Source of the DNA: Candidatus Levyibacteriota bacterium
GTDB lineage: Bacteria; Patescibacteriota; Microgenomatia; Levybacterales; UBA12049
Assembly: GCA_963722305.1 (NCBI GenBank)
Contig: CAVRKE010000002.1
Span: 251,878-315,877 of the forward strand
Reading direction: 5' to 3'
DNA: 64,000 nucleotides
The notes beneath the pieces are model-generated. The model did not search any database and was not told the origin of the DNA. It saw only the letters and a program-made list of their open reading frames with translations. The position numbers and the translations under genes are program-made. This document shows positions 7,711 through 49,734 of this stretch, piece by piece. How positions within the stretch are numbered: the stretch's first letter is position 1; the number at the start of each line of letters is the position of its first letter.

Positions 7711-8202
7711 TTATTTCGTGCCAGACGAAGAAGGCAGAGAAGTTTTAGTTTGCACTGGAGACGGTGGACACGCGTTCGTTCCTACGTAGGTCGGACAAGC
7801 TATTCCGGATTTTGGTATACAAGTTGGCCTGGGTGTGCAAGTTAGCTTTGGTGTTAACGTCGGTTTTGGTGTTGGAATTGGGGTTGGACAAACAATTTTA
7901 GCCACGTACTTGACGGTACTTAACATTGTTTGTGTTGCGCACATTGCTCCCCAAGTTTTTGCGTTAGTGCCGTTTTGTTGCAAAATTATGGCCACGCTTC
8001 CTTTTGTAAGCTGAACACAGGTTGCGCAAGTTAAGGAAGATGGAACAGGACCGGTAGTTGTGCCCAAAACTACGTTCTCCGAATTTGGATTAACGGACTT
8101 AAAAATGAATAAAGACAACAGAGAAACAATCACCAGCAAAACAATGACTGTCAGAAGAAGATACTTGATGACGTTTTTTTCTCGCGACGTTCTTTTTGCC
8201 AT
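7711..8202 (-). CDS. Hypothetical membrane-anchored Cys/Pro/Thr-rich protein
   Basis: 163 aa. One N-terminal TM helix, then an extracytoplasmic part with many Cys and PTP repeats. Confidence 0.5.
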   Translation of the reverse strand: MAKRTSREKNVIKYLLLTVIVLLVIVSLLSLFIFKSVNPNSENVVLGTTTGPVPSSLTCATCVQLTKGSVAIILQQNGTNAKTWGAMCATQTMLSTVKYVAKIVCPTPIPTPKPTLTPKLTCTPRPTCIPKSGIACPTYVGTNACPPSPVQTKTSLPSSSGTK

Positions 8203-17323: not shown

Positions 17324-18199
17324 GCAATTTTTGGGTAATCCCACCCTGTTGGTACAAAATCGTTAGAATATGATTATGTACCATTTAAAACAAGTACCTA
17401 CGGATGCCCAGATTAAAAAGTTTCTCAGAAGAACTGTTTTTGGTAGAAATATCTTCTGTCCAAAGTGCAAATCCTGGAATATTGTTCGCTTTGAAAAAAG
17501 ATACAGATGTAGACAATGTCAGATTAAGTTCTCGCTGTTTTCCCATACCTGGCTTTGCAATGTGAAGATTCCTTTGCAGAGATTTTGGTTAATTCTCTGG
17601 TGCTGGACAAAACAAATGCCGGTTAAACAGACTGAAGATCTAACTTCTTTGTCTGAGAAGGGAGTCAGACATTACTTTGACTTGTTCAGAGAACAATTAC
17701 CAAGAGATCGGAGGCTTCTAGAGCATATTGTCCAGCTTGATGAGGCCTACTTTGGCAGATTTGGTAATACCGCACTTCTCATGGGAAAGGAGAGAGGAAC
17801 CAGAAAGCTTGCTTATCAAATCCTCTCCTCTGATGCCCCAGCGAAGAAAGATGCAATTGATTTTGTTAGAACTTACGTTAAACCAGAGTCTCAACTAAAT
17901 ACAGATGGCTCTACTATTTACAAAAATATTGATAAGTATTATCCTCTATTCCATATGACAGACATTCACAAGAAATTTGAGTTTACCAACACCTCTGAAA
18001 TTGAAGGAATGTTTGGCGTTTTAAGGACTTTTATCCGGAGGATGTACCACCATGTCAGTGAAGAAAAGCTTGAAGAATATGTCTGTGAATTTTACTGCAG
18101 ATTTTCCAGACCGGAAATGTTTAAATCTCCTTACCATTACTTGCAAAACACGCTACATGCTTTACCAACAGGGTAGGAGAACCCCAATTTTTAAATTGC
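17324..18199 (+). mobile_element. IS1595-family insertion sequence, about 0.88 kb, with imperfect terminal inverted repeats
   Basis: Left repeat 17324-17348 GCAATTTTTGGGTAATCCCACCCTG. Reverse complement of right repeat 18169-18199: GCAATTTAAAAATTGGGGTTCTCCTACCCTG. Encloses a zinc-ribbon DDE transposase gene. No clean target-site duplication was seen. Confidence 0.55.
17370..18176 (+). CDS. IS1595-family transposase (N-terminal zinc ribbon + DDE_Tnp_IS1595)
   Basis: 268 aa. N-terminal CPKC...CRQC ribbon, and the ...LDEAYFG... and ...NTDG... DDE-region motifs. Confidence 0.8.
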   Translation: MIMYHLKQVPTDAQIKKFLRRTVFGRNIFCPKCKSWNIVRFEKRYRCRQCQIKFSLFSHTWLCNVKIPLQRFWLILWCWTKQMPVKQTEDLTSLSEKGVRHYFDLFREQLPRDRRLLEHIVQLDEAYFGRFGNTALLMGKERGTRKLAYQILSSDAPAKKDAIDFVRTYVKPESQLNTDGSTIYKNIDKYYPLFHMTDIHKKFEFTNTSEIEGMFGVLRTFIRRMYHHVSEEKLEEYVCEFYCRFSRPEMFKSPYHYLQNTLHALPTG

Positions 18200-18292: not shown

Positions 18293-18631
18293 TCACTTTG
18301 CGGCAATCATGCTAATTTCTATTTTTGCCCCAAGCGGTAATTCTTTTACACAAACCGTATCTCTGGCGGGAAAGGGTTCAGCAAAATAACTTCCGTAAAC
18401 TTCATTTATTTTTGCATAATCCCCCATATCGGTTACATATATTGTTGTTCTAACCACATTTTTGAAACTGGCTCCGGCTTTTTCTAAGACTGCTGAAAGA
18501 TTTTTCATTATTTGATGCGTTTGTTCTTCAACTGTTCCTTCCAAAAGCTTTCCTTCTGATGTTAAATAAACTTGTCCCGAAGTAAAAACAAAACCGTTTT
18601 GGGTTTTCGATGGGGAAAATGGTAGTGCCAT
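18293..18631 (-). CDS. ridA: RidA/YjgF-family reactive-intermediate deaminase
   Basis: 112 aa; typical RidA fold sequence …TTIYVTDMGDYAKINEVY…. Confidence 0.85.
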   Translation of the reverse strand: MALPFSPSKTQNGFVFTSGQVYLTSEGKLLEGTVEEQTHQIMKNLSAVLEKAGASFKNVVRTTIYVTDMGDYAKINEVYGSYFAEPFPARDTVCVKELPLGAKIEISMIAAK

Positions 18632-19652: not shown

Positions 19653-19988
19653 ATGAAGAGAAGAAAAAGACATTTGTGGCTTTTGCCGGTTAGTTTTTTG
19701 AGTTTGGCAGCTTTGGTTTATTTAATATTGAACTTTTCTCCAGCGTTTCAATTATCAATTATCAATTTTCAATTTTCAATTCTGATACCGGCGCTGACGC
19801 TTTTATTTATTTTTATATTTTCCCTTTTTGCTTTTATTTTGAACAATTCCCGCCGCGGGTTTTTATTGGGATTATTAATAATTAGTTATTTATTATTGCG
19901 GTTGAACGGTCTCACTTCCCCATTTTTCGCTATTCTATTATTAATCCTTTTCGGAGTGATTGAGTTATTTTTTGTTAAGAGAAAGTAG
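19653..19988 (+). CDS. Hypothetical membrane protein
   Basis: 111 aa with 3 TM helices and no other support. Confidence 0.4.
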   Translation: MKRRKRHLWLLPVSFLSLAALVYLILNFSPAFQLSIINFQFSILIPALTLLFIFIFSLFAFILNNSRRGFLLGLLIISYLLLRLNGLTSPFFAILLLILFGVIELFFVKRK

Positions 19989-20039
19989 TTATCTTTAATT
20001 TTGCGATCGAAGCTTTAAATTATTTCGTCGTTCTGCAGT

Positions 20040-20215
20040 TGTCCTCTTGAAAGATCGAGTGAGTGCGTCAGGGGAATTCCGCACAAACTTGTTGCGGAAG
20101 GGGTGAAATTACCCGACAAACGAACGAGATCTTGAAAGTTGACAACAAAGTTCGACGAGAGTTTCTGCGTACTCTTGTCGGCACAAGAGTATAAAAAAGT
20201 TTTTTATTTTTTTAC
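20040..20215 (+). ncRNA. Candidate structured small RNA (copy A of a repeated element), upstream of but separate from metG
   Basis: A roughly 130-nt core 20068-20195 (CAGGGGAATTCCGCACAAACTTGTTGCGGAAGGGGTGAAATTACCCGA...AGTTCGAC...) recurs inverted at 30575-30705. It ends in the hairpin ACTCTTGT-CGGC-ACAAGAGT followed by a U-rich tract. metG has its own TGTTATAAT promoter downstream of this terminator. Confidence 0.3.
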
Positions 20216-20254
20216 TTTCCGAACTGAAAATTAAAATTCTGTTATAATCTAGCT

Positions 20255-21703
20255 ATGAAATTTTATTTAACCACTGCCATACCATATGTTAATGCCAAGC
20301 CGCATGTCGGCCATGCTTTGGAGTTTGTGCAAAGCGACGTTATCAAACGCTTTCACCAAATTTTAGGCGATGAAACCCTGCTTCTCTCCGGTGCCGATGA
20401 AAATTCTTTGAAAAATGTTCAGGCGGCCGACTCTGAAGGAATAACGGTTCAACAATTAGTTGATAAAAATTCCCTGTTGTTTGAAGAACTGGCCAAAAAA
20501 TTAAATATTGAGTTTGACATTTTTCAAAGAGGCAGCAGCATTGAACACCACGAGTCTTCGCAAAAATTGTGGGAACGCTGTTTTAAAACAGGCGATATTT
20601 ACAAAAAGATTTATACCGGCCTGTACTGCGTCGGCTGTGAACTTTTCTACGAGAAAAACGAGCTAAACGAAAAAGGCGAATGTTTTGAGCACCCGGGGAA
20701 ACCGCTGGAAGAAGTCAGTGAAGAAAATTATTTTTTCAAACTCTCCAAATACCAAAAGCAAATTCAGGCGTTGATTGAAGATGATAAATTGAAGGTCTAC
20801 CCGGAGTTTCGAAAACATGAAGTGTTGGGATTTTTAAAAGAGGGTTTGCAGGACATCAGTATCTCCAGAAGCAACAAACGGGCCAAAAACTGGGGCGTTG
20901 AGGTACCGGATGATAAAAGTCAAAAAATGTATGTCTGGTTTGACGCCTTAAACATTTATCAGTCGGGAATTGGTTTTGGCGCTAATGAGAAGGAGTACCA
21001 AAAATGGTGGCCGGCGGACTTACATGTTATCGGCAAGGGAATTATCCGATTTCATGCAGTTTATTGGCCGGCGTTTTTACTGTCTGCTAATTTGCCTTTA
21101 CCAAAAGCTTTATTTGTCCACGGATATTTTACGGTTGACGGACAAAAAATGTCTAAAAGTTTAGGTAACGTTGCCGATCCCTTAGAGTTTATCGAAAAAT
21201 ATGGACCTGACGGTTTACGTTATTATCTATTGTCGCAAATTTCTCCATTCCAGGACGGTGATTTTTCCGAGAAAAAACTAGTTGAAGTTTATAATGCCGA
21301 CCTGGCAAACGGACTGGGAAATCTGGTGGCCAGGGTGGCCAAACTTTGCGAAACCAGCTATTTTAAGCAGACTCCGTCCGAAAAAAACAAACACGTCATT
21401 GAAAATTATGAGCAATATCTAAAGGCGCTCAAGGAATACCGCTTTAACGACGCGCTGGCCTTTATCTGGAATAAAATCAGAAATGTCGATAAATATATTA
21501 ACGAAGAAAAACCCTGGGAACTAATTAAAGGCAAAAATCCCAAACACCCGATTAAAGCAATTCTTGAGCATGCGGTGGATGAGATTGAAGAAATCGCCGT
21601 GCTTTTGGCACCGTTTATGCCTGAAGCTTCCGCAAAAATCAGAGAACAATTTACCAAGGCGGAAATTAAGTCCGTTGCCCCGCTTTTTCCGCGTATCAGT
21701 TGA
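20255..21703 (+). CDS. metG: Methionyl-tRNA synthetase (short form)
   Basis: 482 aa. HIGH-type motif …PHVGHA… and KMSKS motif. The mRNA appears leaderless: the TATAAT is about 7 nt before the ATG. Confidence 0.93.
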   Translation: MKFYLTTAIPYVNAKPHVGHALEFVQSDVIKRFHQILGDETLLLSGADENSLKNVQAADSEGITVQQLVDKNSLLFEELAKKLNIEFDIFQRGSSIEHHESSQKLWERCFKTGDIYKKIYTGLYCVGCELFYEKNELNEKGECFEHPGKPLEEVSEENYFFKLSKYQKQIQALIEDDKLKVYPEFRKHEVLGFLKEGLQDISISRSNKRAKNWGVEVPDDKSQKMYVWFDALNIYQSGIGFGANEKEYQKWWPADLHVIGKGIIRFHAVYWPAFLLSANLPLPKALFVHGYFTVDGQKMSKSLGNVADPLEFIEKYGPDGLRYYLLSQISPFQDGDFSEKKLVEVYNADLANGLGNLVARVAKLCETSYFKQTPSEKNKHVIENYEQYLKALKEYRFNDALAFIWNKIRNVDKYINEEKPWELIKGKNPKHPIKAILEHAVDEIEEIAVLLAPFMPEASAKIREQFTKAEIKSVAPLFPRIS

Positions 21704-21736
21704 CATAAGTCTTATAGTTTACTATAATACACACCT

Positions 21737-22033
21737 ATGGCATTTCCAGAAAGACCACCAAGAGGACCTAATCCCGACAGCAATGCTGAGCAGAGAAAAG
21801 CTCGTGCGAAAACCGTAGCGGAAATAGCGCTAAGAATCTTAAACGGCCCTTCACGCGCAGTATCTAATATTTTGTCTTCCCGTGCCCTACCTATAGTAAT
21901 AGGCGTCGGGCTTTTCGGGTTTTGTATTAAAGCCAGTGGTGATACATTTCAAGGAGCCGCAATAGGCACTACAGCAGGAACTATCAGTGGTTTAATAACC
22001 AGAGGGTTTCAACAAGGACCGCCAGACCATTAA
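21737..22033 (+). CDS. Hypothetical small membrane protein
   Basis: 98 aa. A TTGACA-N17-TATAAT promoter lies 8 nt upstream of the ATG (leaderless-like). One or two TM helices. Confidence 0.45.
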   Translation: MAFPERPPRGPNPDSNAEQRKARAKTVAEIALRILNGPSRAVSNILSSRALPIVIGVGLFGFCIKASGDTFQGAAIGTTAGTISGLITRGFQQGPPDH

Positions 22034-22085
22034 CCTCTTCTTAAATCTGACTTGACAAAATCAGATGTTTACTGTTTAATAGAAA

Positions 22086-22212
22086 AATCATCAAGAGATC
22101 CCGCCATGGCGGGACGGCAACCGAAAGACAAACGGTGCCATTCCTAACGGAAGATGAGGTCCTAACCGGACAAGTCTATCGCCTCTCTTGATTGAGAGGC
22201 ATTATTGTATTT
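22086..22212 (+). promoter_or_regulatory. Candidate SAM-I-clan (SAM-I/IV-like) riboswitch with an SD-sequestering expression platform, upstream of metK
   Basis: SAM-I-like strings in order: AUCAAGAGA ... GGCAACC ... GGUGCCAUUCC ... GAAGAUGAGG (P1 closing). The downstream hairpin GCCUCUC-UUGAUU-GAGAGGC (22181-22200) contains the SD sequence GAGAGG, and its 5' arm CUCUUGAU is complementary to the P1 strand AUCAAGAG. A TTGACA-N17-TTTAAT promoter sits at 22053-22081. Confidence 0.5.
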
Positions 22213-23307
22213 ATGAGTGATTATATTTTTACATCAGAATCGGTCTGTGCCGGACACCCGGACAAAATCTGCGATTCAATTAGTGACGCGATTTTAGATG
22301 AGGTCTTAAAACAAGATAAAACCGGACGGGTCGGGGTTGAAACTCTGGTCGCTTTTAACAAAGTTTCTATTGTCGGCGAAATTACCGCCAATGCTAAAGT
22401 GGATTACGAAAAAGTCGCCCGCAAAAGAATCAGGGATTTAGGTTACACTAATCCTTTATTTAACTTTACCGACCAGTCGCCGGTGGACGTTGATGTTCAC
22501 GAACAATCACCGGAAATTTTTAGAGGTGTAAAGGTCAAAGGCGCCGGAGACCAAGGAATGATGTTTGGTTTTGCCTGTACAGAAACAAAAGTGTTGATGC
22601 CAATGCCGATTATTCTTGCCCACCGCTTAGCGCAAAGACTGGATGAAGTCAAAAAAACCACTCTCCCCTTCCTTCGCCCCGACGGAAAAACCCAAGTTAG
22701 TATCGAATATAAAAACGGCTTGCCATACAAAATTTTCCAAGTTGTCATTGCCGTTCCGCATGATGAAGATAAAACCTTAAAACAGGTCAAAAACGCGCTT
22801 TATAAGGAAGTCGTTCGAGGAATTCTGGATGAATACGGGTTTAAGATAAACGAAAAAGATTTAATCGTTAACGGCACGGGCGTTTGGCACATGCCCGGAC
22901 CGGCCAGTGATTCAGGACTGACGGGAAGAAAAATTATTGTTGATACATACGGCGGTTACGCCAGAGTCGGCGGCGGATGCTTCTCCGGCAAAGACCCAAC
23001 CAAGGTTGATAGAAGCGGCGCTTATGCGGCAAGATATTTGGCCAAACACGTTGTCAAAGAAAAATTGGCCGACAAAGCCGAAGTCAGACTGGCTTATTTT
23101 ATTGGCGCGAAAAAACCGGTCATGTTGGAAGTGGAAACTTTTGGAACAGAAAAAGTACCAAATAAAATTATCAAAAATTTTATGTCGGAAATTTTGGATA
23201 CTTCGGTGGCGGGAATAATTGAAGAGTTGGATTTGCAAAAACCGATTTACCTGGCCACCTCTGTCTACGGACATTTCGGCCGTGACCACTTCTCCTGGGA
23301 AAAATAG
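22213..23307 (+). CDS. metK: S-adenosylmethionine synthetase (bacterial type). Start taken at MSDYIF, downstream of the ORF-track start.
   Basis: Motifs GHPDKICD, GAGDQGMMFG, DTYGG and GGGCFSGKDPTKVDRS. Confidence 0.93.
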   Translation: MSDYIFTSESVCAGHPDKICDSISDAILDEVLKQDKTGRVGVETLVAFNKVSIVGEITANAKVDYEKVARKRIRDLGYTNPLFNFTDQSPVDVDVHEQSPEIFRGVKVKGAGDQGMMFGFACTETKVLMPMPIILAHRLAQRLDEVKKTTLPFLRPDGKTQVSIEYKNGLPYKIFQVVIAVPHDEDKTLKQVKNALYKEVVRGILDEYGFKINEKDLIVNGTGVWHMPGPASDSGLTGRKIIVDTYGGYARVGGGCFSGKDPTKVDRSGAYAARYLAKHVVKEKLADKAEVRLAYFIGAKKPVMLEVETFGTEKVPNKIIKNFMSEILDTSVAGIIEELDLQKPIYLATSVYGHFGRDHFSWEK

Positions 23308-23369
23308 CCTGGGAAAAAACTGAAAATTACCCCTTGACTAGCGGAAAAAATCGTCTTATACTCACGGTA

Positions 23370-24053
23370 ATGAAAAACAAATGGTTGATTATTGCTATCG
23401 TAGTAGTCTTAATCGTTCTTGTCGGAGCAATCGGTTATAAATTAATGTCCTCCAAATCAAAAACAATGCCGCAGGCACAAATGCAAAAACCAACTACTAT
23501 GCAAACTGCCAAACCGCAAACCGTAAATAGAAACGCCATCACCGGGACAATCTTAAGTTTGATTGAAGGCGGAAAAACTATTTCCTGCACCATTACCTAT
23601 CCCGACAACAAAGGCACAGGTACTATTTACGTCGGCAGCAATAAAAAATTTGCCGGAGACTTTAATATGAAAGGCACCAATAATGCCAATGTAGTTGCCC
23701 ACATGGTTTCCGACGGAACCTATATGTATATGTGGTCGGCAGCTATGCCAATGGGGATTAAAATGAGTCTTCTGGCTGCCAGAAATGCCGCCAGCAACAC
23801 CCAAAACCAAAGCGTTAATCTTAACCAAAATGTTAGCATGCAATGCAACCCTTGGACAGTTGATGAATCCAAATTTACAATTCCAACCAATATCAGTTTT
23901 ACGGACATGAGTAATTTAACTAATCCGGCTGGGTCAACTACAGTCGCTCCGCAAACGGGAACCGGAACAACCGGCACGTCGCCTTGTGACGCAATCACTA
24001 ATCCGACAGCCAAAGCTGCTTGCCAAAGCGCCTTAAAATCACACGGCTATTAA
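23370..24053 (+). CDS. Hypothetical membrane-anchored secreted protein (start at MKNKWLII)
   Basis: A TTGACT...TTATAC promoter lies just upstream. N-terminal TM helix, Thr/Asn-rich ectodomain, conserved Cys pairs. Confidence 0.55.
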   Translation: MKNKWLIIAIVVVLIVLVGAIGYKLMSSKSKTMPQAQMQKPTTMQTAKPQTVNRNAITGTILSLIEGGKTISCTITYPDNKGTGTIYVGSNKKFAGDFNMKGTNNANVVAHMVSDGTYMYMWSAAMPMGIKMSLLAARNAASNTQNQSVNLNQNVSMQCNPWTVDESKFTIPTNISFTDMSNLTNPAGSTTVAPQTGTGTTGTSPCDAITNPTAKAACQSALKSHGY

Positions 24054-24075
24054 ATTCCCCTTTTGCAGAAATAAA

Positions 24076-24498
24076 TTAACTTGAAGAATGAACTCTTTCT
24101 TTTTCTAATTGTTCTTGTTTTCTCATCCAAGCGCTTAATAAGGTACTGAAATTTCTTTCGCCGACTTCACAATTTATCGGACGCACCGCCCTATCTACCT
24201 GCATTTGCCTTCGTCCAATTGTTAGCGGAGGAAATAGTTCAAGGGCGCGTGCCCTTCTTAACCACTTTCCTAATTTCTTGCAATCTCCGGTTAACTCTAT
24301 TTCAGCTAGATATGCTTTCAGTCGTCTATCTTCATATCTAACTTTAGTTCTCTCGAATACATTAAGCAGGGTGCCATGTTCCTCCACTACTATTCCCATG
24401 CTTATTCCAACTGGCCCTTGATCAAAATCTGGTTTTCTTCTCATGTGAACGTTAATTCTAGCAAAAACTGGTCGATAAGTCAAACTATGGGGCATATG
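24076..24498 (-). CDS. Hypothetical protein (start at the internal MPHSLTY; 1-4 nt overlap with the upstream gene)
   Basis: About 140 aa. Translationally coupled to the SRPBCC gene. No recognisable domain. Confidence 0.45.
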   Translation of the reverse strand, partial: HMPHSLTYRPVFARINVHMRRKPDFDQGPVGISMGIVVEEHGTLLNVFERTKVRYEDRRLKAYLAEIELTGDCKKLGKWLRRARALELFPPLTIGRRQMQVDRAVRPINCEVGERNFSTLLSAWMRKQEQLEKERVHSSS

Positions 24499-24499
24499 A

Positions 24500-24895
24500 T
24501 TACCTTGTTTCAAGGTATTCTTTGAGAGGACCAAGATAATAGTCTTGCCAACCGTTTTCAATATCTTCGACGTTTTCATCGGGGATATCTTTTTGGCTTA
24601 AATCAAGTTTTGTTCCGCCGCCTCTTAATTTAAACAGTGTAAAAGCAACAATTGAGGGCTTATCCCATTTATTTTCTTCATCGGAAAACCATTCCTGAAC
24701 CAACTTTTGGTTTGCCAAAACTTCGATGTTCTTGCCCCAGATGCTTCCTCCCCACAGGGAAAATTCAAAACCAACCGTGTCCTCCATTTTTGCCGGCCCG
24801 CCGCCCCAAGCGTTGATAATTTTTGGGTCAACCAAGGATCGCCAAACTCTCTCAATTGGGGCATTAATTAAATATGTTTGTTTTATCCTTTTCAT
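24500..24895 (-). CDS. SRPBCC/AHSA1-family (START-like, polyketide cyclase-like) protein
   Basis: 131 aa. Family-typical N-terminus …YLINAPIERVWRSLVDPKIINAW…. Confidence 0.7.
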   Translation of the reverse strand: MKRIKQTYLINAPIERVWRSLVDPKIINAWGGGPAKMEDTVGFEFSLWGGSIWGKNIEVLANQKLVQEWFSDEENKWDKPSIVAFTLFKLRGGGTKLDLSQKDIPDENVEDIENGWQDYYLGPLKEYLETR

Positions 24896-24937
24896 TCCGC
24901 AGGTATTATACCACCAAAAATTTATCGGTAAATTTAC

Positions 24938-25195
24938 TTATCCGAAGTACATTCCCGGAATATCATTATGTACCGGCGATGGTTGCGCAGCAGAAACTCC
25001 TCCATCGACAGCGTGAGCATTAAATAAAGTTCTCCCCTCGCCGACTCCCGCCAGCGCACTTTCCCCTCCAGCCGGTTGAGAACTTTCTGTTCCGGATAAT
25101 GAAACATGTTTTCCTGCCCACTCGTTGACGTGGTCATGACTGTGTCCCACCTCTTGAGCAGCTCTAGCTCTTTGTATTATTCGTTCATAGTCCAT
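24938..25195 (-). CDS. Hypothetical small His-rich protein. Strong RBS (AAGGAGGTG) with the ATG at 25195.
   Basis: 85 aa starting MDYERIIQ. Located in a GC-richer patch. No homology inferred. Confidence 0.4.
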   Translation of the reverse strand: MDYERIIQRARAAQEVGHSHDHVNEWAGKHVSLSGTESSQPAGGESALAGVGEGRTLFNAHAVDGGVSAAQPSPVHNDIPGMYFG

Positions 25196-25718
25196 AGTTA
25201 ACACCTCCTTATTTTTAAAAGATTTATGGATTTAGATAAATTCTAAGAGGCAAACTTAATTTATGCTAGGGCATTAAGCTTACAACAAACTGAGAACGAA
25301 GTCAACCCGGGAGTTTAGAGACGGGTTAAAAAATACATGATCATGAAAATCACAAACCCGATGCCGATAATCCCCATCCCCAGACTGAAGTACTTAAGGA
25401 TTACCAATAAAATCTGGTTTTGTTTTTGCGGACTATCCATAAGTTGATTATAACATTGAAAGAAATCTTGTTATTTTTAGAAAATTGTGTATAATCCAAG
25501 AACTATGGGAGCAGAAGTAGTAAAACCGGTACCAAAAGACCTCCGAAGATGGGCGAAGGGTGTGTTGGCGGAAAAAAAGGCAAATCAACCGCTGGTACCC
25601 TTCCCGACCGGTGTCGAAGGTTATTCATGGCGGATTCGCCGGGGAGCGAGTTTAAAGGGAGTAGTATAATGGACCCCATAATCTGCACAGTCACCTTAGA
25701 CTAAGATAGAATAGTTCT

Positions 25719-26015
25719 ATGGATCAAAAAATACGCAGAATTCATCCACCGGCATTTAAAGCCAGAGTTGCTCTGGAGGCAATTAAGGAACAAAAAACAA
25801 TTGCGGAGCTGTCAAGTATGTACGGTGTACATTCAACCCAAATAACGAAATGGAAACGCCGGGCGTTGGAGATTCTCTCGCAAGGGTTTTCAGAACATCT
25901 TATTCAACGGAAACGGGATGACCGTGAGCTGGTACAGGAATTGTATCGGCAAATAGGAAGATTAAAAGTCGAAGTAGACTTTCTTAAAAAAAAGATGGGC
26001 ATCTTCGACGAGTAG
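25719..26015 (+). CDS. IS3-family transposase OrfA (HTH)
   Basis: 98 aa. Typical IS3 OrfA with a leucine-zipper-like C-terminus. It ends just after the A8G tract (25986-25994). Confidence 0.85.
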   Translation: MDQKIRRIHPPAFKARVALEAIKEQKTIAELSSMYGVHSTQITKWKRRALEILSQGFSEHLIQRKRDDRELVQELYRQIGRLKVEVDFLKKKMGIFDE

Positions 26016-26118
26016 GGATATCCTTACTCCCGGAGAAATTGCTCTGCACATTAACAAAACAGAAAGCGTATTACCAAAGAGTATACGGGCTGATCTTCTG
26101 GATATTTCCAGATCAAGT

Positions 26119-26856
26119 TTGTACTATCAGCCAAGACCGGTTAAACCCGAGGCACTCATTTTAATGAACAGAATTGATGAGGTATATACTGCCCACCCTT
26201 TTTATGGTTCAAGACGTATGGCAAAAGAGGTTGGTGTTAACAGAAAACAGGCACAACGCCTGATGCGTGAAATGGGCTATGAGGCATTGTATCCGAAGCC
26301 TAATTTGAGTAAACCCGATAAACAACACATGTTCTATCCGTATTTACTCAAAGGAGTAGTTGCAGGATATCCAAATCATATCTGGGGCACAGATATTACG
26401 TATATTCGGATGAAACATGGGTTTGTATATTTAACTGCCTTTCTTGATTGGTTTACCAGATTTGTTGTTTCCTGGAAGCTCTCAATTACCCTTGAAACAG
26501 ACTTTTGTTTTGATGCTGCAACTGAAGCAATTGAGAAATTCGGAAGACCAACCATTATTAATGAAGATCAGGGATCACAAAATACCGATCATCTGATGAC
26601 AGATCTCTGGGAAAATCACAATGTCAAAATCAGCATGGACTCACGGGGACGGGCACTGGACAATATCTTCACCGAGAGGTTATGGAGGAGTGTTAAATAT
26701 GAAGAGGTATACTTAAAAGAATACGCTACTGTTTTGGAAGCAAAAGAAAACATTGAAAACTATTTTTACTTTTACAATTATGAAAGAAAACACCAATCGC
26801 TTAATTACAGAACACCGGCTGAAATATATTTTGGAAAGGAGGAAAACTTAGTCTAA
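26119..26856 (+). CDS. IS3-family transposase OrfB (rve integrase core). The frame is open upstream to about 25984, overlapping orfA.
   Basis: DDE/rve motifs …WGTDITYI…, …EDQGSQN…, …NYERKHQSL…. The frame is +1 relative to orfA by coordinates (see findings). Confidence 0.85.
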   Translation: MYYQPRPVKPEALILMNRIDEVYTAHPFYGSRRMAKEVGVNRKQAQRLMREMGYEALYPKPNLSKPDKQHMFYPYLLKGVVAGYPNHIWGTDITYIRMKHGFVYLTAFLDWFTRFVVSWKLSITLETDFCFDAATEAIEKFGRPTIINEDQGSQNTDHLMTDLWENHNVKISMDSRGRALDNIFTERLWRSVKYEEVYLKEYATVLEAKENIENYFYFYNYERKHQSLNYRTPAEIYFGKEENLV

Positions 26857-26919
26857 GTTTAGCCGTTTTACTGTGTTGACAATGGGGTCCACCTTATAGA
26901 CAGAACCGACAGGGCGGAC

Positions 26920-27507
26920 ATGCTTGGCATCGCCAGAGAAGCTGCCTGGCTTGAGCATCGGGTTGACGAAGTTAGAAACGCGCATTTTCAATTTACCGAG
27001 GAACACCCGCAGGTACCTGGCGTAATAGCCGATGCCCAGCATGGCGGTTATAGCGTTACCGCGGTATTTCAAAATCAAGCGGATTTTAAGGATGACGTTA
27101 TTATGGCATCCTTGACACCCGAGCAATTAGCCAGAGTCTATCATCAGCGAAGAACTGAAATCACGTTTGTCTTTGACGGGGAAGAGTTGGTGACAGCCGA
27201 CGGAACACATTATTCCGCCCAAAAGGCAGCGCAAATGATGAGGCATTCACTGCTTGGGGGCGGAATTGAGGAGGGATTAGTTGACGAAAAACACCTTGCC
27301 AGTAAGATTAAAGCCGAAAGAGATATTGTGGCTCTGGCGGAAATTATTGACTCAGGGGTTTTTGTACCGGGAATTACGATTACACCATGGCGGCAGGAAG
27401 TCCGGGCTCTTGATAAATTTGCCGGAATACACTTCGACAGACAACCAAGAAGAAGAAAGAATTTAATCACACCCAGAAATAAACCGCGAACTACTCCGAA
27501 GTCATAA
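26920..27507 (+). CDS. Hypothetical protein (GC-richer patch); possibly the 3' part of a gene split by the IS3
   Basis: 195 aa. The frame is open upstream to the IS3 right end. No domain recognised. Confidence 0.4.
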   Translation: MLGIAREAAWLEHRVDEVRNAHFQFTEEHPQVPGVIADAQHGGYSVTAVFQNQADFKDDVIMASLTPEQLARVYHQRRTEITFVFDGEELVTADGTHYSAQKAAQMMRHSLLGGGIEEGLVDEKHLASKIKAERDIVALAEIIDSGVFVPGITITPWRQEVRALDKFAGIHFDRQPRRRKNLITPRNKPRTTPKS

Positions 27508-27511
27508 TTTT

Positions 27512-27913
27512 TTATTCCGTGGTGGTGCCGTCGAATTCGGGGCCGTCAGCTTCTGCTTCCTGTTTGGTTTGCCTGACAATCCCATCCTTGTGGTGCGGCG
27601 GGCTGTAAAGCGTATACAGTTTTAGCTCTTCCGTTTGGGAAGTATTAATCACGTTATGCTGCGAGCCCTGCGGCACAATCACTGCGTCGCCGTCGGAAAC
27701 TAGATATTCGGTGCCGTCAATAATTACTTTTCCCTCTCCCTTTTCAAAGCGGAAAAACTGGTCGTTTGCTTCGTGTACCTCCATGCCGATTTCCTCACCC
27801 GGTCGAAGAGACATTAAAACCAACTGACAATTTTTGGCAGTATACAAAACATGACGGAAATTTGTATTTTCCAGCGTCAGCTTTTCAATATTATCTTTGT
27901 AGCCCTTTTTCAT
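27512..27913 (-). CDS. Cupin-domain protein
   Basis: 133 aa. Cupin_2-like two-motif pattern (…GMEVHEAND…, …GDAVIVPQGSQHNV…). Confidence 0.7.
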   Translation of the reverse strand: MKKGYKDNIEKLTLENTNFRHVLYTAKNCQLVLMSLRPGEEIGMEVHEANDQFFRFEKGEGKVIIDGTEYLVSDGDAVIVPQGSQHNVINTSQTEELKLYTLYSPPHHKDGIVRQTKQEAEADGPEFDGTTTE

Positions 27914-27976
27914 CTACATTTAGTATAACACTAAATCTTGCATTAGAAAAATGTTTCCCCTATAATCCCACTAATT

Positions 27977-28306
27977 ATGCCAAGCTATCAAGAATTAGCT
28001 ATTTTTACCGTGGAGATTCCGGCGGCAGGACGCCCATTACCTTCTTTAGGTGAAGGGGCTGATTTTTCTTTACCGGCAATTCCCGGCGTGGACGCAAGTT
28101 CCAGCGGAAAAAGTCGACAGGAAAAGAAAGCTCGTGCAAGAAATTTTCAAAACAGATTTAAACAAACTCCCCCTTCCGTCCAACCCGACCAATCTGTTCA
28201 GCCCGACCGGCCTACTCAACCCGTTAAACCGATTAAACCGCAACACCGTATGCATGGAGGGCCCGGATCGATAAGACCCAGCCAAAGACGCGCAAAGCAC
28301 CCCTAA
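27977..28306 (+). CDS. Hypothetical Pro-rich protein
   Basis: 109 aa. A TTGCAT-N17-TATAAT promoter lies 10 nt upstream (leaderless-like). Low complexity, so weak support. Confidence 0.35.
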   Translation: MPSYQELAIFTVEIPAAGRPLPSLGEGADFSLPAIPGVDASSSGKSRQEKKARARNFQNRFKQTPPSVQPDQSVQPDRPTQPVKPIKPQHRMHGGPGSIRPSQRRAKHP

Positions 28307-28312
28307 GGTTGA

Positions 28313-28675
28313 TTATTTTCCTGCCTTGCGAAGCTCTTGCTCCGAAAGGCCGAAGTGGTGGCCGATTTCATGCATAACTGTTTTTCTAACTTGTGCCCGG
28401 ATTTCTTCTTCGCTTGAACATACCTGCAGCATTGCGTACTTAAAAATGGTGATTTTGTCGGGAATTGCACTGTAATATATTCCCCTTTTAGTTTGCGGCA
28501 CTCCCTCGTAAAGCCCGAACAAAAGCATGTTTGGAGCTAAGTCAGCTTTCCGCATTTGATATAGAGTCGGAAAGTCATCAACCGTCACTGAAACGTTATC
28601 CAGTTTTTCGGCAAATTCTTTGGGTAACAAACGTAAAGCCTCTTCAACCAGTTGTCTGAATTTTTTATCATCCAT
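28313..28675 (-). CDS. Zincin-like metallopeptidase family protein (PF06262-like); start at MDDKKF
   Basis: C-terminal …VMHEIGHHFGLSEQEL… HExxH-type motif typical of this small family. Confidence 0.7.
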   Translation of the reverse strand: MDDKKFRQLVEEALRLLPKEFAEKLDNVSVTVDDFPTLYQMRKADLAPNMLLFGLYEGVPQTKRGIYYSAIPDKITIFKYAMLQVCSSEEEIRAQVRKTVMHEIGHHFGLSEQELRKAGK

Positions 28676-28721
28676 CGTGGAAATTATAACACGGCATCCA
28701 GAGAAAAACGTCAACTCTTAG

Positions 28722-29408
28722 TTATTGTTGAAGCGTCCAGGTTCCACAATTTGATGACTTAAATCCAGCATCCGTAGCAGAAATAGTTACTATTGCTGTT
28801 GTATCAGTATTGTCGTTTGAAATAATACCATCTATACCTGCATCACTGAAATTGGAAAGTCTCGAGTAATAACAACCACTTTGACCACTATTCTTATATG
28901 TTCCTGCTTGGATGTCTGTTCCAACTATATACATTCCGTCAGGGAAAGTTGTGGTACTTTTTGTTATTTGTGAAACATCTTGTGTCCAGGTTCCACAATC
29001 TTGTGACTTAAATCCCTTATCAGTTGCCGCAATGGTTACTATTGCCGGAAAATCTGTGTTATCGTTTGCAATAATTTCATCAAGTGTACCACCAAAACCG
29101 CTTAAACGTTCAAAGTAACAACCTGATGATGCAACTCTTGTTCTATATGTTCCCGGCTGGATATCTTTTCCAACTGTGTATACTCCATCTCCAAAATGAG
29201 GATGTGTGTCAATTGTTGGCGTGGGCTGTTTCTGTTGACTTTGCGTTTGCTGATTATTGGTATTTGACGTTGCCGTATTGCTTGATGGCGTGTTATTGCT
29301 ACCACCACTTGCTGCACCAATTACCATAAGGACTATAAATACAACAATAATGCCTGTAATAAATTTATGGCGTATAAACCAATTTTTCTTTTTAGGTACT
29401 TCTTCCAT
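28722..29408 (-). CDS. Membrane-anchored protein with two tandem paralogous domains of about 75 aa (start at MEEVPKK; RBS GGAAGGAGG)
   Basis: The segments GDGVYTVGKDIQPGTYR...CGTWTQ and PDGMYIVGTDIQAGTYK...CGTWTL are internally duplicated, each with 2 Cys. A TTGACT-N17-TATTTT promoter lies upstream. Confidence 0.6.
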   Translation of the reverse strand: MEEVPKKKNWFIRHKFITGIIVVFIVLMVIGAASGGSNNTPSSNTATSNTNNQQTQSQQKQPTPTIDTHPHFGDGVYTVGKDIQPGTYRTRVASSGCYFERLSGFGGTLDEIIANDNTDFPAIVTIAATDKGFKSQDCGTWTQDVSQITKSTTTFPDGMYIVGTDIQAGTYKNSGQSGCYYSRLSNFSDAGIDGIISNDNTDTTAIVTISATDAGFKSSNCGTWTLQQ

Positions 29409-29512
29409 TGTTTCACCTCCTTCCAAATTGATTAAGCTAAAAATACTCTTTTACTTTTCAGAAGTCAAATTGATTTTTTAGCTAAACGGTGTCATGCTAA
29501 GAATGAAAGAGG

Positions 29513-29707
29513 GTGAGAACCTTGAAGAAAATCGAAAAATATTTTGCCAAACACATTTACCTTAACTGGCTGGGGGGTTTAATTGTCGGCACCGGTATCG
29601 GCGCCTTAATCACCAATAGTTTTCTAAACCCGCACCCCGTAAGATATGGACTGGCATTGATAGTGGTTGGACTTTTATTCTGTGCGTGGGGATATTATAA
29701 GGGATAA
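29513..29707 (+). CDS. Hypothetical small membrane protein
   Basis: 64 aa with 2 TM helices. Confidence 0.35.
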   Translation: MRTLKKIEKYFAKHIYLNWLGGLIVGTGIGALITNSFLNPHPVRYGLALIVVGLLFCAWGYYKG

Positions 29708-29709
29708 GG

Positions 29710-30153
29710 TTAAGCCAGCTTGGCGTAGTTTTCCCGGAACCTTTGCCGGAGCAAATTATATCTGTCCTTGGTTTTATTTTTTAGCGCATACTCGTCGTTT
29801 AAAACCTCATCTTTAGTTTTGTATTTGGTAATGACAAATTCCTGTGGCGTTTTATATTGATTTCTGGTCAGATCTTGTCGGGTTTTGTCGGGAAGTTCAT
29901 TCCAGAAATGGTGATTTTCTCTCGCGTAAATCAGTTTCCCGCCGAACATGTCGTTGATCAGCACCGCGGTGACTAAGCACTGGCCGCGGGGCGGATTGCT
30001 GCTTGACCATTTTTGAGTTGTGTCGGCAAAAGTAGCGGTTTGGGCAGACCACGACTTTTCCAAAGCCCTGATAATTTTGCTAAATTCCTGTTTACTTAAA
30101 AGTTTTGAGGGTGAATATAAATTCTTCACCGCCCAATTATACCACCGGGTCAA
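29710..30153 (-). CDS. Conserved hypothetical protein (possibly YunG-like)
   Basis: 147 aa. Motif …WSSSNPPRGQCLVTAVLINDMFGGKL…. The family assignment is from memory and weak. Confidence 0.45.
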   Translation of the reverse strand: MTRWYNWAVKNLYSPSKLLSKQEFSKIIRALEKSWSAQTATFADTTQKWSSSNPPRGQCLVTAVLINDMFGGKLIYARENHHFWNELPDKTRQDLTRNQYKTPQEFVITKYKTKDEVLNDEYALKNKTKDRYNLLRQRFRENYAKLA

Positions 30154-30197
30154 AGATATTAAGCGGAGCCGAAGGAGAAATGGTTTACCTATTATGA

Positions 30198-30422
30198 TTA
30201 AAATTTAAGGAGTTCGAGAACTTTATAAACAAGCAGAGCGGGCCAGACAATAGCTTTTAAAATACCTAAAAGACCCATCCAAAGTGTGGTTGCGTGCTGG
30301 AGAAAATAAATTAATGCGCCAACAAAACCAAGGCCGTAAACTGCATTTCCGCCGGTAGCTTTGCCGCCCTTTCCCCTGCTGCAAATTTTATCCTTTAATG
30401 ATTTCCCTTCTTCCTTGGCCAT
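30198..30422 (-). CDS. Small membrane protein with a leaderless-type promoter
   Basis: 74 aa. TTGACT-N16/17-TACAAT sits 6 nt before the ATG (promoter at about 30436-30466 on the minus strand). Confidence 0.5.
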   Translation of the reverse strand: MAKEEGKSLKDKICSRGKGGKATGGNAVYGLGFVGALIYFLQHATTLWMGLLGILKAIVWPALLVYKVLELLKF

Positions 30423-30559
30423 AATCTGATTGTAGCATCAAAACCCCCGAAGTCAAATCGAGCATGGCAATGCGAGATGGTTGCAAACCCTCCTTGCAAC
30501 CATACAGTCAAACCAACATTCTTAAGTTTGTTGGTTTGTTTTATTCTGAAAGGATTTGA

Positions 30560-30890
30560 AAGATTATTCTTTTTTCCGCAAAAAGAATCAAAAGCTCCTG
30601 CCAAACAAGTTTGATTCCTTGCGTCTTTTGCCGAAAAGACGCCCAAAACTCTTTGCAAGCCAAGTCGAACTATTTTTGCTTGTTCACTCATCGGGTAATT
30701 TCACCCCATCCGCAACAGGTTTGTGCGGAATTCCCCTGATTCATTCACGCGCAAAACTTAACGTTCTTTATTGGATTGCAAAATAATGAAATAACGAATT
30801 GGCAGTTTAGTAGAACATACCAACATTCTTAAGTTTATATGGATGTTCATGTTAAGCTGTGTGGAATTGGGGCCGAAGCGTCAGCGAGGC
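30560..30890 (-). ncRNA. Candidate structured small RNA (copy B of the repeated element) with its own promoter and terminator
   Basis: Minus-strand promoter TTGACT-N17-TAGATT at about 30895-30925. Core 30575-30705 is homologous to 20068-20195. The terminal hairpin GCGTCTTTT-CGGC-AAAAGACGC covaries with the copy A hairpin. A second hairpin GAATCAAA...TTTGATTC is followed by TTTTT. Confidence 0.3.
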
Positions 30891-30981
30891 CGTAGAATCT
30901 AAAAACCCCGGACTCCGAAGTCAAATTAAAACAGGTCATTATCGTTGACAAACCCCATATTAAATATAATAATCACAATAT

Positions 30982-31434
30982 ATGGCAAGTCCGGACCTAA
31001 CAAGCGCGACAACAGAATCACCCGGCCCAAGTGTGCTGCAAAAACTTGTTCCTCCGGGTTCCGGGCTAAGCAAGGTTTCCACCAGGTCTTACGAAGATAT
31101 CGACGGTTCTACAAAACAGGTTAACATTTTACACGTGTTGGGAGCTAAAGCGGTTATCATGGTTCAAAGGGTAAAAGACGGCTGGCGGCCGGAAACCCTT
31201 TTCGGCGAGCTGCGTAATCCGGCCCCTGAGAAATTAGGAGCATTTACGCAAAAAGCCCGTCAGCTGGCGGCAGAAAATCTGCCGACTTTTAACGATAGGT
31301 CTATTGGGCCGGAGTTGAAACGGTTGGCTAAAGATGCAAGGACAATTGCTCCCGGAGAAAGTCCGCATATCCGCTCGCAAAGACATAAGCTTTCCGCTCC
31401 CCGCTCGGCCATACTCATCGGCCCAAAGAAGTAA
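30982..31434 (+). CDS. Hypothetical protein (GC-rich patch)
   Basis: 150 aa. A TTGACA-N18-TATAAT promoter lies upstream. No domain recognised. Confidence 0.45.
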   Translation: MASPDLTSATTESPGPSVLQKLVPPGSGLSKVSTRSYEDIDGSTKQVNILHVLGAKAVIMVQRVKDGWRPETLFGELRNPAPEKLGAFTQKARQLAAENLPTFNDRSIGPELKRLAKDARTIAPGESPHIRSQRHKLSAPRSAILIGPKK

Positions 31435-33032: not shown

Positions 33033-33211
33033 ATTTTTCACCTCCTTTCTTAATAATTTATTTTTAGGAAGCAGCCTTGCTTCCTGTACTTGAATTAAAA
33101 AAAGCGGGGTGAATTTTGCAAGGGCGACTGAAAGGAAGTTCATCTTGACCCTTGTCAAAAGAGGGGCAAGACCCCTAGAGAAGCTTTTTGCGTGCTATAA
33201 TATATTTTATT

Positions 33212-33979
33212 ATGGCAGATGGTTCAGCGATGCCTGAGGCTAGTATCCCCAACAGTGAAAGACAGACTTTGGGAGATTTCGAAACAACTCCTCCAAGCGA
33301 ACATGACCCGAATAATTTTCGCTATATTGTTCACTGTTTTGTTCCGGATAATTTGAAGGGGGTATTTACTACAGTTGGGTCGAAGAGAGCAGCGGATAAA
33401 GGTTGGCATCCTGAAACTCAAAGTGATCCGATCGAAAGCACGGAGCAATTTCTTAAAAGAGAATATATCTCTTGTTCTGTGGTAGATCAAGACCATTTAG
33501 CTACGTGGTCCAATGCGGGAATAATATTAAACGCTGAGAGGAAGAATCTTATGTTGACGTTTGGGGGAGACGCGGGAATAGTTTCGTCAACTGACGCGGA
33601 CAGGGAGCAATTCCCTTATCCAGTTATGCCCTTTTCGGAGCTTTTAGATGAAACTAGTCCTTTCCTTCACAACGAAGTTGTTGTGCGTGGATCCGAAGGA
33701 TATCCACCGCTTAGTATAGCTGGCGTTTTTATTAAGACAGATCCACAAGGACAATATATCCATGACATGGACGCTGAAGTTATTCCAAAGGCTCGCAATT
33801 TAGCTGCGAGACTCAATGTACCCGTAGTTGAGATGAGAGGAGTGCCTACCCTACATACTATTATACCCATATCTCAACCACCTAATGCTAATGTAGAACA
33901 ACCTATTGAATCTACTGGCGGAATGTTTAATAAGGTAAAAGTAGGCGTTTCTAGTATTAGAAGAAGATTCAAAGTTTAA
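33212..33979 (+). CDS. Hypothetical protein (GC-richer), flanked by 29-bp direct repeats
   Basis: About 255 aa from MADGSAMPEA. No domain recognised. The repeat CCTTGTCAAAAGAGGGGCAAGACCCCTAG occurs at 33149-33177 and 34121-34149. Confidence 0.45.
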   Translation: MADGSAMPEASIPNSERQTLGDFETTPPSEHDPNNFRYIVHCFVPDNLKGVFTTVGSKRAADKGWHPETQSDPIESTEQFLKREYISCSVVDQDHLATWSNAGIILNAERKNLMLTFGGDAGIVSSTDADREQFPYPVMPFSELLDETSPFLHNEVVVRGSEGYPPLSIAGVFIKTDPQGQYIHDMDAEVIPKARNLAARLNVPVVEMRGVPTLHTIIPISQPPNANVEQPIESTGGMFNKVKVGVSSIRRRFKV

Positions 33980-34216
33980 TAAGATCCACCTTTATTAGAA
34001 TAGGTGGTATTGCTTATGCAAAAGGTGTTTTTAAATTTAAAGCAAGAAGAGAAAGACTTATACCATTAAGCCAGGAATAGAATAGGATCTAACCTCGTCT
34101 ATCCCACGAATGCAGGAAATCCTTGTCAAAAGAGGGGCAAGACCCCTAGGATACTATCGATAAATAATCACTTCTTGTAATGATTGATTTTTCAAATTCT
34201 TTTACTATGGCAACCG

Positions 34217-46822: not shown

Positions 46823-47019
46823 GTTATAACAATGTTATAACAAAATACACTATTTGTCAAGACGCCCTTAAGGAACTACTTAATCTGACGGGATAATTCA
46901 AGCACAATAGGTTTGTATCATTCCCCTAGAGAAAGGTATACTGAAAACGGAGAGCCAGCGAAAATAGGTTTCGGGATAGTATTTTTACTATGCCCACTGT
47001 TAGAGCAACTGGTCTTCCC

Positions 47020-48175: not shown

Positions 48176-48280
48176 CTTCTCCATGAACACGCTGTTCAGG
48201 ATTTCGCTGAAGCTCAACATCAGGGGGGAGCTGCTTAGCCTCAAAATTGACTTCCTCTTAAATTATGAGATGATTTATTT

Positions 48281-49732: not shown

Positions 49733-49734
49733 AC

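Follow-up and report, generated by a model that had tools for sequence, protein, structure and literature searches.

The 64,000-nucleotide stretch of DNA analyzed here (the window; positions 251,878 to 315,877 of contig CAVRKE010000002.1, from a Candidatus Levyibacteriota bacterium) contains two inverted copies, A and B, of an element that, judged from sequence comparison, is a previously undescribed rod-shaped structured RNA family of about 170–200 nucleotides (nt), with members found so far only in Levybacteria/Microgenomates. The two copies are probably paralogous genes, representing two subtypes (A and B), for an undescribed non-coding RNA confined to this lineage. An orphan structured bacterial RNA is a familiar kind of object; the unusual trait of this one is the presence of long target duplications without terminal repeats. 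In the bacteria of the candidate phyla radiation, which possess very small genomes and do not grow in isolation, hardly any regulatory RNAs have been described. A lineage-specific structured RNA with a 46-nt invariant domain offers a concrete handle on their biology, from which a new ribonucleoprotein or regulator could follow.

Family members and their predicted fold

A preliminary description of the window had noticed a core shared by two inverted copies, and this observation stands: the 46-nt sequence GGGGAATTCCGCACAAAC[T/C]TGTTGCGGA[A/T]GGGGTGAAATTACCCGA occurs at 20071–20116 on the plus strand and at 30691–30736 on the minus strand, with two differences between the copies, and nowhere else in the window; 100 shuffles gave no match, and none is expected by chance. 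The ungapped inverted pair that includes the core (20056–20128 and 30679–30751) spans 73 nt at 85% complementarity, and outside the core the copies are only weakly alike. The boundaries drawn earlier needed revision. The whole structured unit comprises about 170 nt (copy A, 20024–20191, plus strand; copy B, 30781–30621, minus strand) and not about 130, a long-range helix that pairs its ends having been overlooked, and the range formerly given for copy B (30575–30705) leaves out the 5′ half of the core together with the entire 5′ strand of the closing helix.

Pattern scans and a covariance model, applied to public genomes and metagenomes, yielded 14 distinct members in total. Of the matches to a 21-mer pattern from the 3′ half of the core, for which one genome per species was scanned, five were true copies and two were due to chance; the true copies lie in four bins, of which two are Levybacteria, one is Microgenomates and one bears the label Gammaproteobacteria, and core matches number one or two per species genome. 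In metagenomes, a second pattern, taken from the core's 5′ half, gave 12 true loci and one chance match. The covariance model, built on the central 89 positions and run on the window with filters off, scored copy A (20049–20137) at 106.7 bits and copy B (30670–30758) at 95.2 bits, the next match reaching only 14 bits; it further recovered two members missed by the patterns, namely L008b (L008, 5328–5423) and L036 (3900–3987). Both subtypes are represented once each in the window and in L012, and L008 holds two copies of subtype A. L008, L009 and L019 stem from peat bog and groundwater samples. Two pattern scans of viral contigs returned no matches, and an nhmmer search with both cores against the loci of the first relatives found no copies. 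The host was identified through MetG (20255–21703), the best matches of which, at up to 84% identity, come from Levybacteria/Patescibacteria metagenome bins. One contig (L013, CAYILI010000014.1) is labelled ‘uncultured Gammaproteobacteria’, yet carries a subtype-B copy in an AT-rich context; its bin assignment is probably wrong.

At gathering thresholds, Rfam 15 had a sole match in the whole window, the S-adenosylmethionine (SAM)-I/IV riboswitch at 22083–22188, and none at either copy. When the two copy regions were compared with 4227 Rfam models at E ≤ 10, only chance-level partial matches, far under threshold, appeared. A scan of the window for transfer RNAs and transfer-messenger RNA found none, and no mention of the element turned up in a search of the literature for Microgenomates/Patescibacteria RNA motifs. 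Thus, the earlier proposal of a candidate novel RNA family is upheld, both by the lack of any Rfam match at this permissive cutoff and by the strong compensatory variation among the 14 distinct homologues recovered with the help of the covariance model.

The predicted fold is a rod about 135 nt long, in which a closing helix pairs the 5′ end with the 3′ end, followed inward by two more helices, a loop-bearing helix and an apical cap formed by the core (Table 1). The long-range helix joins sequence about 45 nt upstream of the core to sequence about 40 nt downstream of it. The loop-bearing helix features three 2×2 loops, two of which are tandem G·A, with two base pairs (bp) between each (5′ strand GA-GU-GA-GU-GC, 3′ strand AA-AC-GA-AC-GA); the GA/AG loop positions are nearly invariant and the pairs beside them covary. 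A sarcin-ricin/loop-E reading of this region (GAGUGA/UGAAC) was rejected, as the adjoining positions covary as Watson-Crick pairs. Downstream of the rod lies a conserved linker (GAGAGUUU-type) and then a 3′ hairpin. As had been remarked earlier, this hairpin differs in sequence between the two copies and yet keeps its pairing (20170–20191 and 30642–30621), and among the members all of the counted pairs (7/7) are changed on both sides.

The covariation constitutes strong comparative evidence for a genuine structured nucleic acid under selection. In subtype A (RNAalifold, n = 8), compensatory changes were seen at 24 of 47 pairs, with 93.9% of the cells paired as against 41–54% when the partners were slid, and with a covariation score of 0.39 as against 0.07–0.11; none of 500 shuffles reached the observed values. 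In the four subtype-B members, RNAalifold gave 49 pairs, 16 of them compensatory, e.g., CCAA/UUGG to CGAA/UUCG and GAAC/GUUC to GGGC/GCCC. The core alignment of all 14 members is 97.1% paired, with compensatory changes at 14 of its 25 pairs. For this and the subtype-A alignment, slid controls had 2–8 compensatory pairs and covariation scores of 0.02–0.11, compared to 0.39–0.46 observed. G·U pairs far exceed A·C mismatches (31 versus 4), which marks the strand reading CAGGGG as the functional one. Further, L008a and L036 are orthologous copies at a shared position following yacL, and the differences between them in the apical hairpin P3 are compensatory; that the fold was kept in this way points to selection on each resident copy and not only on an active master copy. 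Single-sequence fold z-scores (−0.9 to −1.6) were unremarkable and uninformative. A coding role was rejected: the open reading frame (ORF) of 98 codons that overlies copy B (30395–30691) has no counterpart in copy A, and the AUG mini-ORFs after the core are not conserved.

In the apical domain, UCAGGGGAAUUCC and GGA-N-GGGGUGAAAUU-N-CCCG are constant in nearly all 14 members and the surrounding stems vary freely; the exceptions are a 5′ U-to-A change in L022 and the deletion of one A in L025. P3 is usually an invariant CCGCA/UGCGG, with CCUCA/UGAGG in L008b and CCUCG/CGAGG in L036 (exchanges of G-C to U-A and of A-U to G-C), and its tip ranges from a 9-nt loop to an added 7-bp helix, which itself covaries. 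The alternative pairings noticed in the preliminary description, GGGGAAUU with AAUUACCC or GGGU with ACCC, are both present. In fold I, a 7-bp P3 would stand beside the small hairpin P4 (GGGUG/UUACC), leaving AGGGGAA single-stranded; in fold II, the GGGGAAUU/AAUUACCC helix would stack on a 5-bp P3, with AAGGGGUGA bulged. The predicted energies favour fold I by about 3 kcal/mol in 12 members and fold II by about 6 kcal/mol in L019 and L022, the carriers of an A-to-C change that breaks P4 and completes the alternative helix. Energy prediction and this single variable position are thus suggestive of a switch between two apical folds. Mimicry of a Shine-Dalgarno sequence by AAGGGGUGA would be speculation, with no support either way, because most host genes are leaderless and such sites are missing from them.

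Table 1. Coordinates of the two copies, their structural parts and their immediate surroundings in the window.
Feature	Position	Strand	Details and basis
Copy A (subtype A), rod domain	20024–20159	+	RNAalifold and pair counts on 8 subtype-A members; covariance model
Copy A, closing helix	20024–20030 with 20153–20159	+	UUCGUCG with CGACGAG
Copy A, outer helix	20038–20043 with 20141–20146	+	GUUGUC with GACAAC
Copy A, inner helix	20051–20056 with 20128–20133	+	AAGAUC with GAUCUU
Copy A, loop-bearing helix	20057–20069 / 20115–20127	+	three 2×2 internal loops, two tandem G·A; apical core above
Copy A, apical core	20068–20116	+	near-invariant
Copy A, P3 hairpin	20077–20083 with 20093–20099	+	UUCCGCA with UGCGGAA
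Copy A, P4 hairpin	20101–20105 with 20110–20114	+	GGGUG with UUACC
Copy A, alternative helix	20071–20078 with 20107–20114	+	GGGGAAUU with AAUUACCC
Copy A, 3′ part	20160–20214	+	linker AGUUUCUGCG; hairpin UACUCUUGU-CGGC-ACAAGAGUA at 20170–20191; then A6-G-U6-A-U7
Copy B (subtype B), rod domain	30653–30781	-	RNAalifold on 4 subtype-B members; covariance model
Copy B, helices	30781–30776 with 30658–30653; 30774–30771 with 30663–30660	-	UUGCAA with UUGCAA; CCAA with UUGG
Copy B, further helices		-	GAAC/GUUC, UUUUGC/GCAAAA, then loop-bearing helix and apical core
Copy B, apical core	30691–30739	-	2 positions differ from copy A
Copy B, 3′ part	30579–30652	-	linker AGAGUUUUGG; hairpin GCGUCUUUU-CGGC-AAAAGACGC at 30642–30621; sequence and fold
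Copy B, second hairpin	~30618–30580	-	GGAAUCAAA..UUUGAUUCU, then U5
metG extended −10 box	20240–20248	+	TGTTATAAT; start codon 20255; leaderless; outside the RNA
Gene downstream of copy B	30198–30456	-	small membrane protein of 74 residues; outside the RNA
Promoter-like TTGACT-17-TAGATT	30896–30924	-	consensus scan only, 9/12; outside the repeat-bounded insert, ~115 nt upstream of the structure
Copy A-bearing segment missing at the same site in relatives	19990–20236	+	alignment with L001/L002, L003, L005
Copy B, upstream direct repeat	30816–30847	.	32 nt, 81% identity to 30509–30540, spacing 307; hairpin potential lost
Copy B, downstream direct repeat	30509–30540	.	intact 10-bp hairpin CAAACCAACA/TGTTGGTTTG

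Gene neighbourhoods and insertion footprints

The RNA is not tied to a particular neighbouring gene. Its neighbours across the family are unrelated (metG, the small membrane protein and YunG, rplL, topA, cysS, ndk, rho, yacL, a tadA-like deaminase, an FAD oxidase, a RibD_C-like reductase and a Vut_1 transporter), and the next gene downstream is convergent in L008a, L009/L017, L013 and L019. The leaderless arrangement at metG (TG-N-TATAAT, 6–9 nt, ATG) recurs in L001 and L003, which are without the element; metG is thus independent of it and has a promoter of its own, in line with the preliminary description. The gene for the small membrane protein likewise possesses its own TG-extended promoter (TTGACT-16-TACAAT, 30456–30429) and a leaderless ATG at 30422. 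The earlier view of the element as a free-standing RNA, not a leader or riboswitch, agrees with these unrelated flanks and with the convergent downstream genes in several members.

The further claim that each copy comes with its own promoter and terminator is not established, as no promoter is consistent among the members and the 3′ hairpin is mostly without a U-tract. The TTGACT-N17-TAGATT box assigned to copy B does exist (30924–30896), but it lies beyond the flanking repeat, about 115 nt upstream of the structure and not about 330; transcription into copy B might start from it, at a site not conserved in other members. At copy A, a U-run begins 9 nt past the 3′ hairpin, and a terminator scan after this copy reported nothing.

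Comparison with the corresponding sites of relatives shows that copy A and several homologues evidently arrived as cassettes of about 190–280 bp, the insertion of which duplicated about 20–35 bp of the target. In L001/L002 and L003, the stop codon of a small ORF (ending in ..VKRK; 19653–19988 in the window) abuts the −10 box of metG, and in L005 the two are about 40 nt apart. The window has about 245 extra bases between this ORF and metG, which hold copy A, and the same 247-nt gap is found in the closest relative (MetG 84%). After yacL, L008 and L036 carry a copy, and L034 has an empty site; judged by the 620 nt that adjoin, L034 stands closer to L036 than L008 does. The other copy in L008, L008b, has no counterpart in L034 or in L036.

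Direct repeats bracket four members, namely copy B (21–32 nt, spacing 306–307), L008a (21 nt), L009/L017 (27 nt) and L019 (35 nt), in each case with alignment scores unreached by any shuffle; the score for the flanks of copy B was exceeded by none of 300. The 18-bp direct repeat previously described around copy B is present and longer than claimed, with 32 nt at 81% identity (30509–30540 / 30816–30847). The L019 repeat is the rplL terminator, that of L017 is the topA 3′ end, present three times, and that of L008 and L036 comprises the last ≥33 nt (at least) of yacL including the stop, the far copy still reading GRILFSKKLL-stop. The insert ends are not conserved and lie 2–50 nt from the 5′ end of the structure; no terminal inverted repeats were seen by eye at the insert ends of copy B and L019. 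For copy B, no empty site was obtained, the YunG homologues lying in other contexts and the exact-protein matches representing the same strain with identical sequence. Copies tend to cluster, the distance between them being 10.5 kb in the window, 1.35 kb in L008 and 2.5 kb in L012, and no degenerate copies were found beside the two in the 64 kb of the window. Small inserts with a duplicated target of 20–35 bp, no inverted repeats and preserved reading frames are a misfit to the usual bacterial insertion mechanisms; if the footprints reflect the spread of an RNA gene, they would represent a new mode of gene mobility. The RNA may simply ride on a mobilising process, or its fold may have a part in mobilisation.

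The syntenic relative L003, in which the gene order is metG, metK, a gene for 229 residues, then Nramp and DUF2079, lacks a 29-kb island of the window within which copy B is located. This island (~24000–52000) contains an IS3-type integrase, Replic_Relax, DUF2958, a DpnII restriction-modification pair, NERD, DUF3800, two AAA_14/DUF4143 ATPases, an AbiEii toxin and Fic/DOC. Genes also turn over at a local hotspot that extends from the yacL stop to a conserved terminator hairpin (GGTGATACGAC...GTCGTATCACC) and differs in content between close relatives: a tadA-like deaminase in L008, an acetyltransferase in L036, a convergent gene for 205 residues in L038 and nothing in L034. GC-rich inserts were further observed at two of the RNA copies. 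In L015, the linker (~2405–2425) contains an inserted 20-nt GC-rich palindrome, CCTGCCTGCCGGCAGGCAGG; in L017 (~4440–4580), a GC-rich insert of about 150 nt with the same CCTGCCTGCC motif sits beside the RNA copy, bounded by the copies of the topA 3′ end. In these genomes, a small insertion element of a second kind may thus be represented by such inserts.

A probable functional RNA gene and competing interpretations

The fold maintained by compensatory change in L008a/L036 and the frequent G·U pairs make a functional RNA gene, acting in trans via its invariant apex, the most economical reading. Such an RNA would rely on its variable rod mainly for stability and for presenting the apical domain. 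The latter would be the working part, toggling between two nearly isoenergetic folds, each exposing one G-rich strand (AGGGGAA or AAGGGGUGA), and would bind a partner conserved in the cell, for which a protein is the likeliest candidate and a C-rich RNA a possible one; a second protein-contact surface may be provided by the tandem G·A helix.

Several points weigh against a functional RNA gene of this kind. The trans-acting, partner-binding role is one that we infer. The covariation fits a folded RNA and a folded single-stranded DNA of the same strand and cannot distinguish between them, and P4 and the alternative helix show no covariation of their own, because they are invariant. That invariance is itself partly a matter of ascertainment, as all members were found via core patterns; the core halves unused in each pattern are constant too, and L008b and L036, recovered by the model only, keep all but P3. 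With respect to expression, no sigma-70-type promoter recurs among the members at a constant spacing from the 5′ end (the best sites score 7–9/12 and are scattered), unlike the host genes with their near-consensus promoters. The tract after the conserved 3′ hairpin is usually rich in A and not in U, and hence this hairpin is not a canonical terminator. The evidence for autonomous expression, at the level of sequence, is thus weak.

Among the competing interpretations, it is unlikely, though far from negligible, that the element is a small non-autonomous mobile element and not a host RNA gene, its fold serving its own mobility either as a folded single-stranded DNA site for a recombinase or transposase, or as an RNA for a reverse transcriptase in the manner of short interspersed nuclear elements (SINEs). 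The absence of copy A from the same site in relatives, the presence of the yacL copy in L008/L036 and not in L034, the lineage-specificity of the second L008 copy and the derivation of the flanking repeats from the target (the yacL end with its stop, the rplL terminator, the topA 3′ end) are all as expected of such an element, as are the lack of a consistent promoter and the location of copy B in an island of mobile and defence genes. However, terminal inverted repeats are lacking and the insert ends are unconserved, at variable distances from the structure; there are just 1–2 core matches per species genome, the 64 kb have two copies and no degenerate ones, and copies within one genome are old and diverged. 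Viral contigs have no copies, and no reverse transcriptase was found in about 40 ORFs run against Pfam (mainly those at 16–54 kb, with about 25 ORFs at 0–16 and 54–64 kb left out). Moreover, the frequent G·U pairs suit RNA better than DNA, and the compensatory changes in orthologous copies imply selection on each resident copy. In another reading, the RNA gene itself would be the mobile unit, either a bacterial counterpart of SINEs or the cargo of an integrase with a staggered cut of about 30–35 bp. We consider this rather doubtful; copies would then insert next to gene ends with duplication of the last 20–35 bp of the target, the neighbouring genes staying intact, and the invariant apical domain would be the handle for the mobilising enzyme.

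It is quite improbable that the element belongs, in a highly diverged form missed by the Rfam models in this phylum, to one of the known housekeeping RNA classes whose ends are paired, for example 6S RNA, signal recognition particle (SRP) RNA or Y RNA. The length of about 170–200 nt, the paired ends, the rod with periodic internal loops and the two paralogues in some genomes do resemble 6S RNA, and RNAs of the candidate phyla radiation are often divergent; but the two short regions match none of the 4227 models at E ≤ 10, the conserved part is apical and not a central bubble, and the hairpin beyond it has 5–7 bp in most members, which is too short for the upstream-duplex mimic of 6S RNA. Likewise, the GNRA-capped domain IV motif of SRP RNA is missing, and a housekeeping RNA would not usually be gained and lost between close relatives, as the element is. 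Control of the downstream gene (metG or the small membrane protein) via the 3′ hairpin, with the element as a cis-acting 5′ leader, riboswitch or attenuator, has still less in its favour and is highly improbable: while the element does lie just upstream of a co-oriented gene in 6 of the 14 members and has two alternative apical folds with a hairpin after them, the downstream genes are functionally unrelated (metG, the small membrane protein, the FAD oxidase, the RibD_C-like reductase and others) or, in the members named above, convergent, and metG keeps its leaderless TG-extended −10 box downstream of the element in the same layout as relatives without it. These facts led us to reject this role, against which also stand the lack of a U-tract after the 3′ hairpin in most members and the confinement of both alternative folds to the apical domain, where they do not overlap the 3′ hairpin and so provide no competing expression platform. 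Finally, chance similarity or a functionless relic of a local duplication, for which one might cite the mere two copies in the window and the z-scores of −0.9 to −1.6, has practically no likelihood, given that no matches are expected by chance, and is refuted by the 12 further distinct members elsewhere with their invariant core and covarying stems.

Comparison with known systems places the element near several of them without equating it to any. Orphan structured bacterial non-coding RNAs found by comparative genomics include the raiA motif, ROOL and OLE classes. Like these, the element is free-standing, restricted to one lineage and strongly covarying, with a conserved core and no fixed gene association; unlike them, it has several copies with target duplications and a yacL copy that is present or absent between close relatives, and it is much smaller than ROOL and OLE. 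6S RNA is a mostly helical rod of about 180 nt with paired ends and regular irregularities, variable in location and sometimes present as two paralogues (e.g., Bacillus has two 6S RNAs), from which the element differs in having 2×2 loops only, with no large central bubble, and an apical conserved segment followed by a 5–7 bp hairpin. The preliminary description had also raised an origin like that of miniature inverted-repeat transposable elements (MITEs). This is partly supported, in that copy A was inserted and copy B and several homologues have target-derived repeats, and the 190–280 bp insert, the variable sites and the duplicated target at the flanks are shared with MITEs and other small non-autonomous insertions. 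In contrast to MITEs, the element has no terminal inverted repeats or conserved ends, its copy number is very low, its copies have diverged outside the core, and its target duplications are 21–35 nt in length as opposed to short and fixed; no matching transposase was identified for it. The lack of terminal inverted repeats, the low copy number and the structure-preserving orthologues L008a/L036 together indicate that it is not an ordinary MITE.

SINEs are retroposed small structured RNA genes of eukaryotes, with no terminal repeats, target duplications of variable length and a conserved internal domain. The element has each of these traits of a small structured RNA gene; in contrast, its inserts do not end in an A-rich or otherwise defined 3′ tail, 37–50 nt upstream of the structure form part of some of them, and the copy number is low. 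To our knowledge, no SINE-type element is known in bacteria. The attC sites of integrons are likewise imperfect long palindromes, in which pairing is conserved over sequence, strand-specific and located at boundaries beside variable genes; however, attC has conserved boxes at the stem base and a variable apex, which is the reverse of the element, and its recombination does not duplicate a 30-bp target. Neither an integron integrase nor an attI context is present at the element. It differs from palindromic elements of the IS200/IS605 type (PATE, REP) in having long target duplications and no shared short flanking motif. Long and variable direct repeats (8–514 bp) are created by the insertion sequences (ISs) IS1549 and IS1634 (PMC2266710). 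Unlike the element, these carry a transposase and terminal repeats. As regards retrons, we found no reverse-transcriptase domain in the Pfam-tested neighbours of the window copies, L008a, L008b, L012a, L012b, L013 and L015, nor in the upstream neighbours of L017 and L021, for which only these were covered (L019, L022, L025 and L036 were left out).

Other features of the window

Most host genes in the window are leaderless and have no ribosome-binding site; their promoter, a near-consensus TTGACA-17-TAnAAT that in many cases is TG-extended, ends 5–7 nt before the ATG. Examples are the genes at 7711–8202, 18293–18631, 21737–22033, 30982–31434 and 41081–42262. The SAM-I/IV riboswitch aptamer (plus strand; 47.6 bits, threshold 41.1) lies directly upstream of metK (S-adenosylmethionine synthetase, 22192–23307).

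A unit resembling a composite transposon occupies 46638–51401, where inverted IS110-family transposase genes (47168–48115, plus strand; 49769–50716, minus strand) flank a PQQ beta-propeller gene. It is bounded by a 227-nt direct repeat of 99% identity (46638–46864 and 51175–51401) and several inverted repeats, and its genes are the only ones in the window with clear Shine-Dalgarno sequences. At 17370–18176 (plus strand), an IS1595-family transposase gene and an ORF of 112 codons are situated between hrcA and an aldo-keto reductase gene, which are adjacent in L001. Lastly, an exact 29-nt direct repeat, CCTTGTCAAAAGAGGGGCAAGACCCCTAG, at 33150–33178 and 34121–34149 brackets the ORF at 33188–33979, with an inverted partial copy at 38068–38094; this repeat holds a TTGACA-like box and a GC hairpin.

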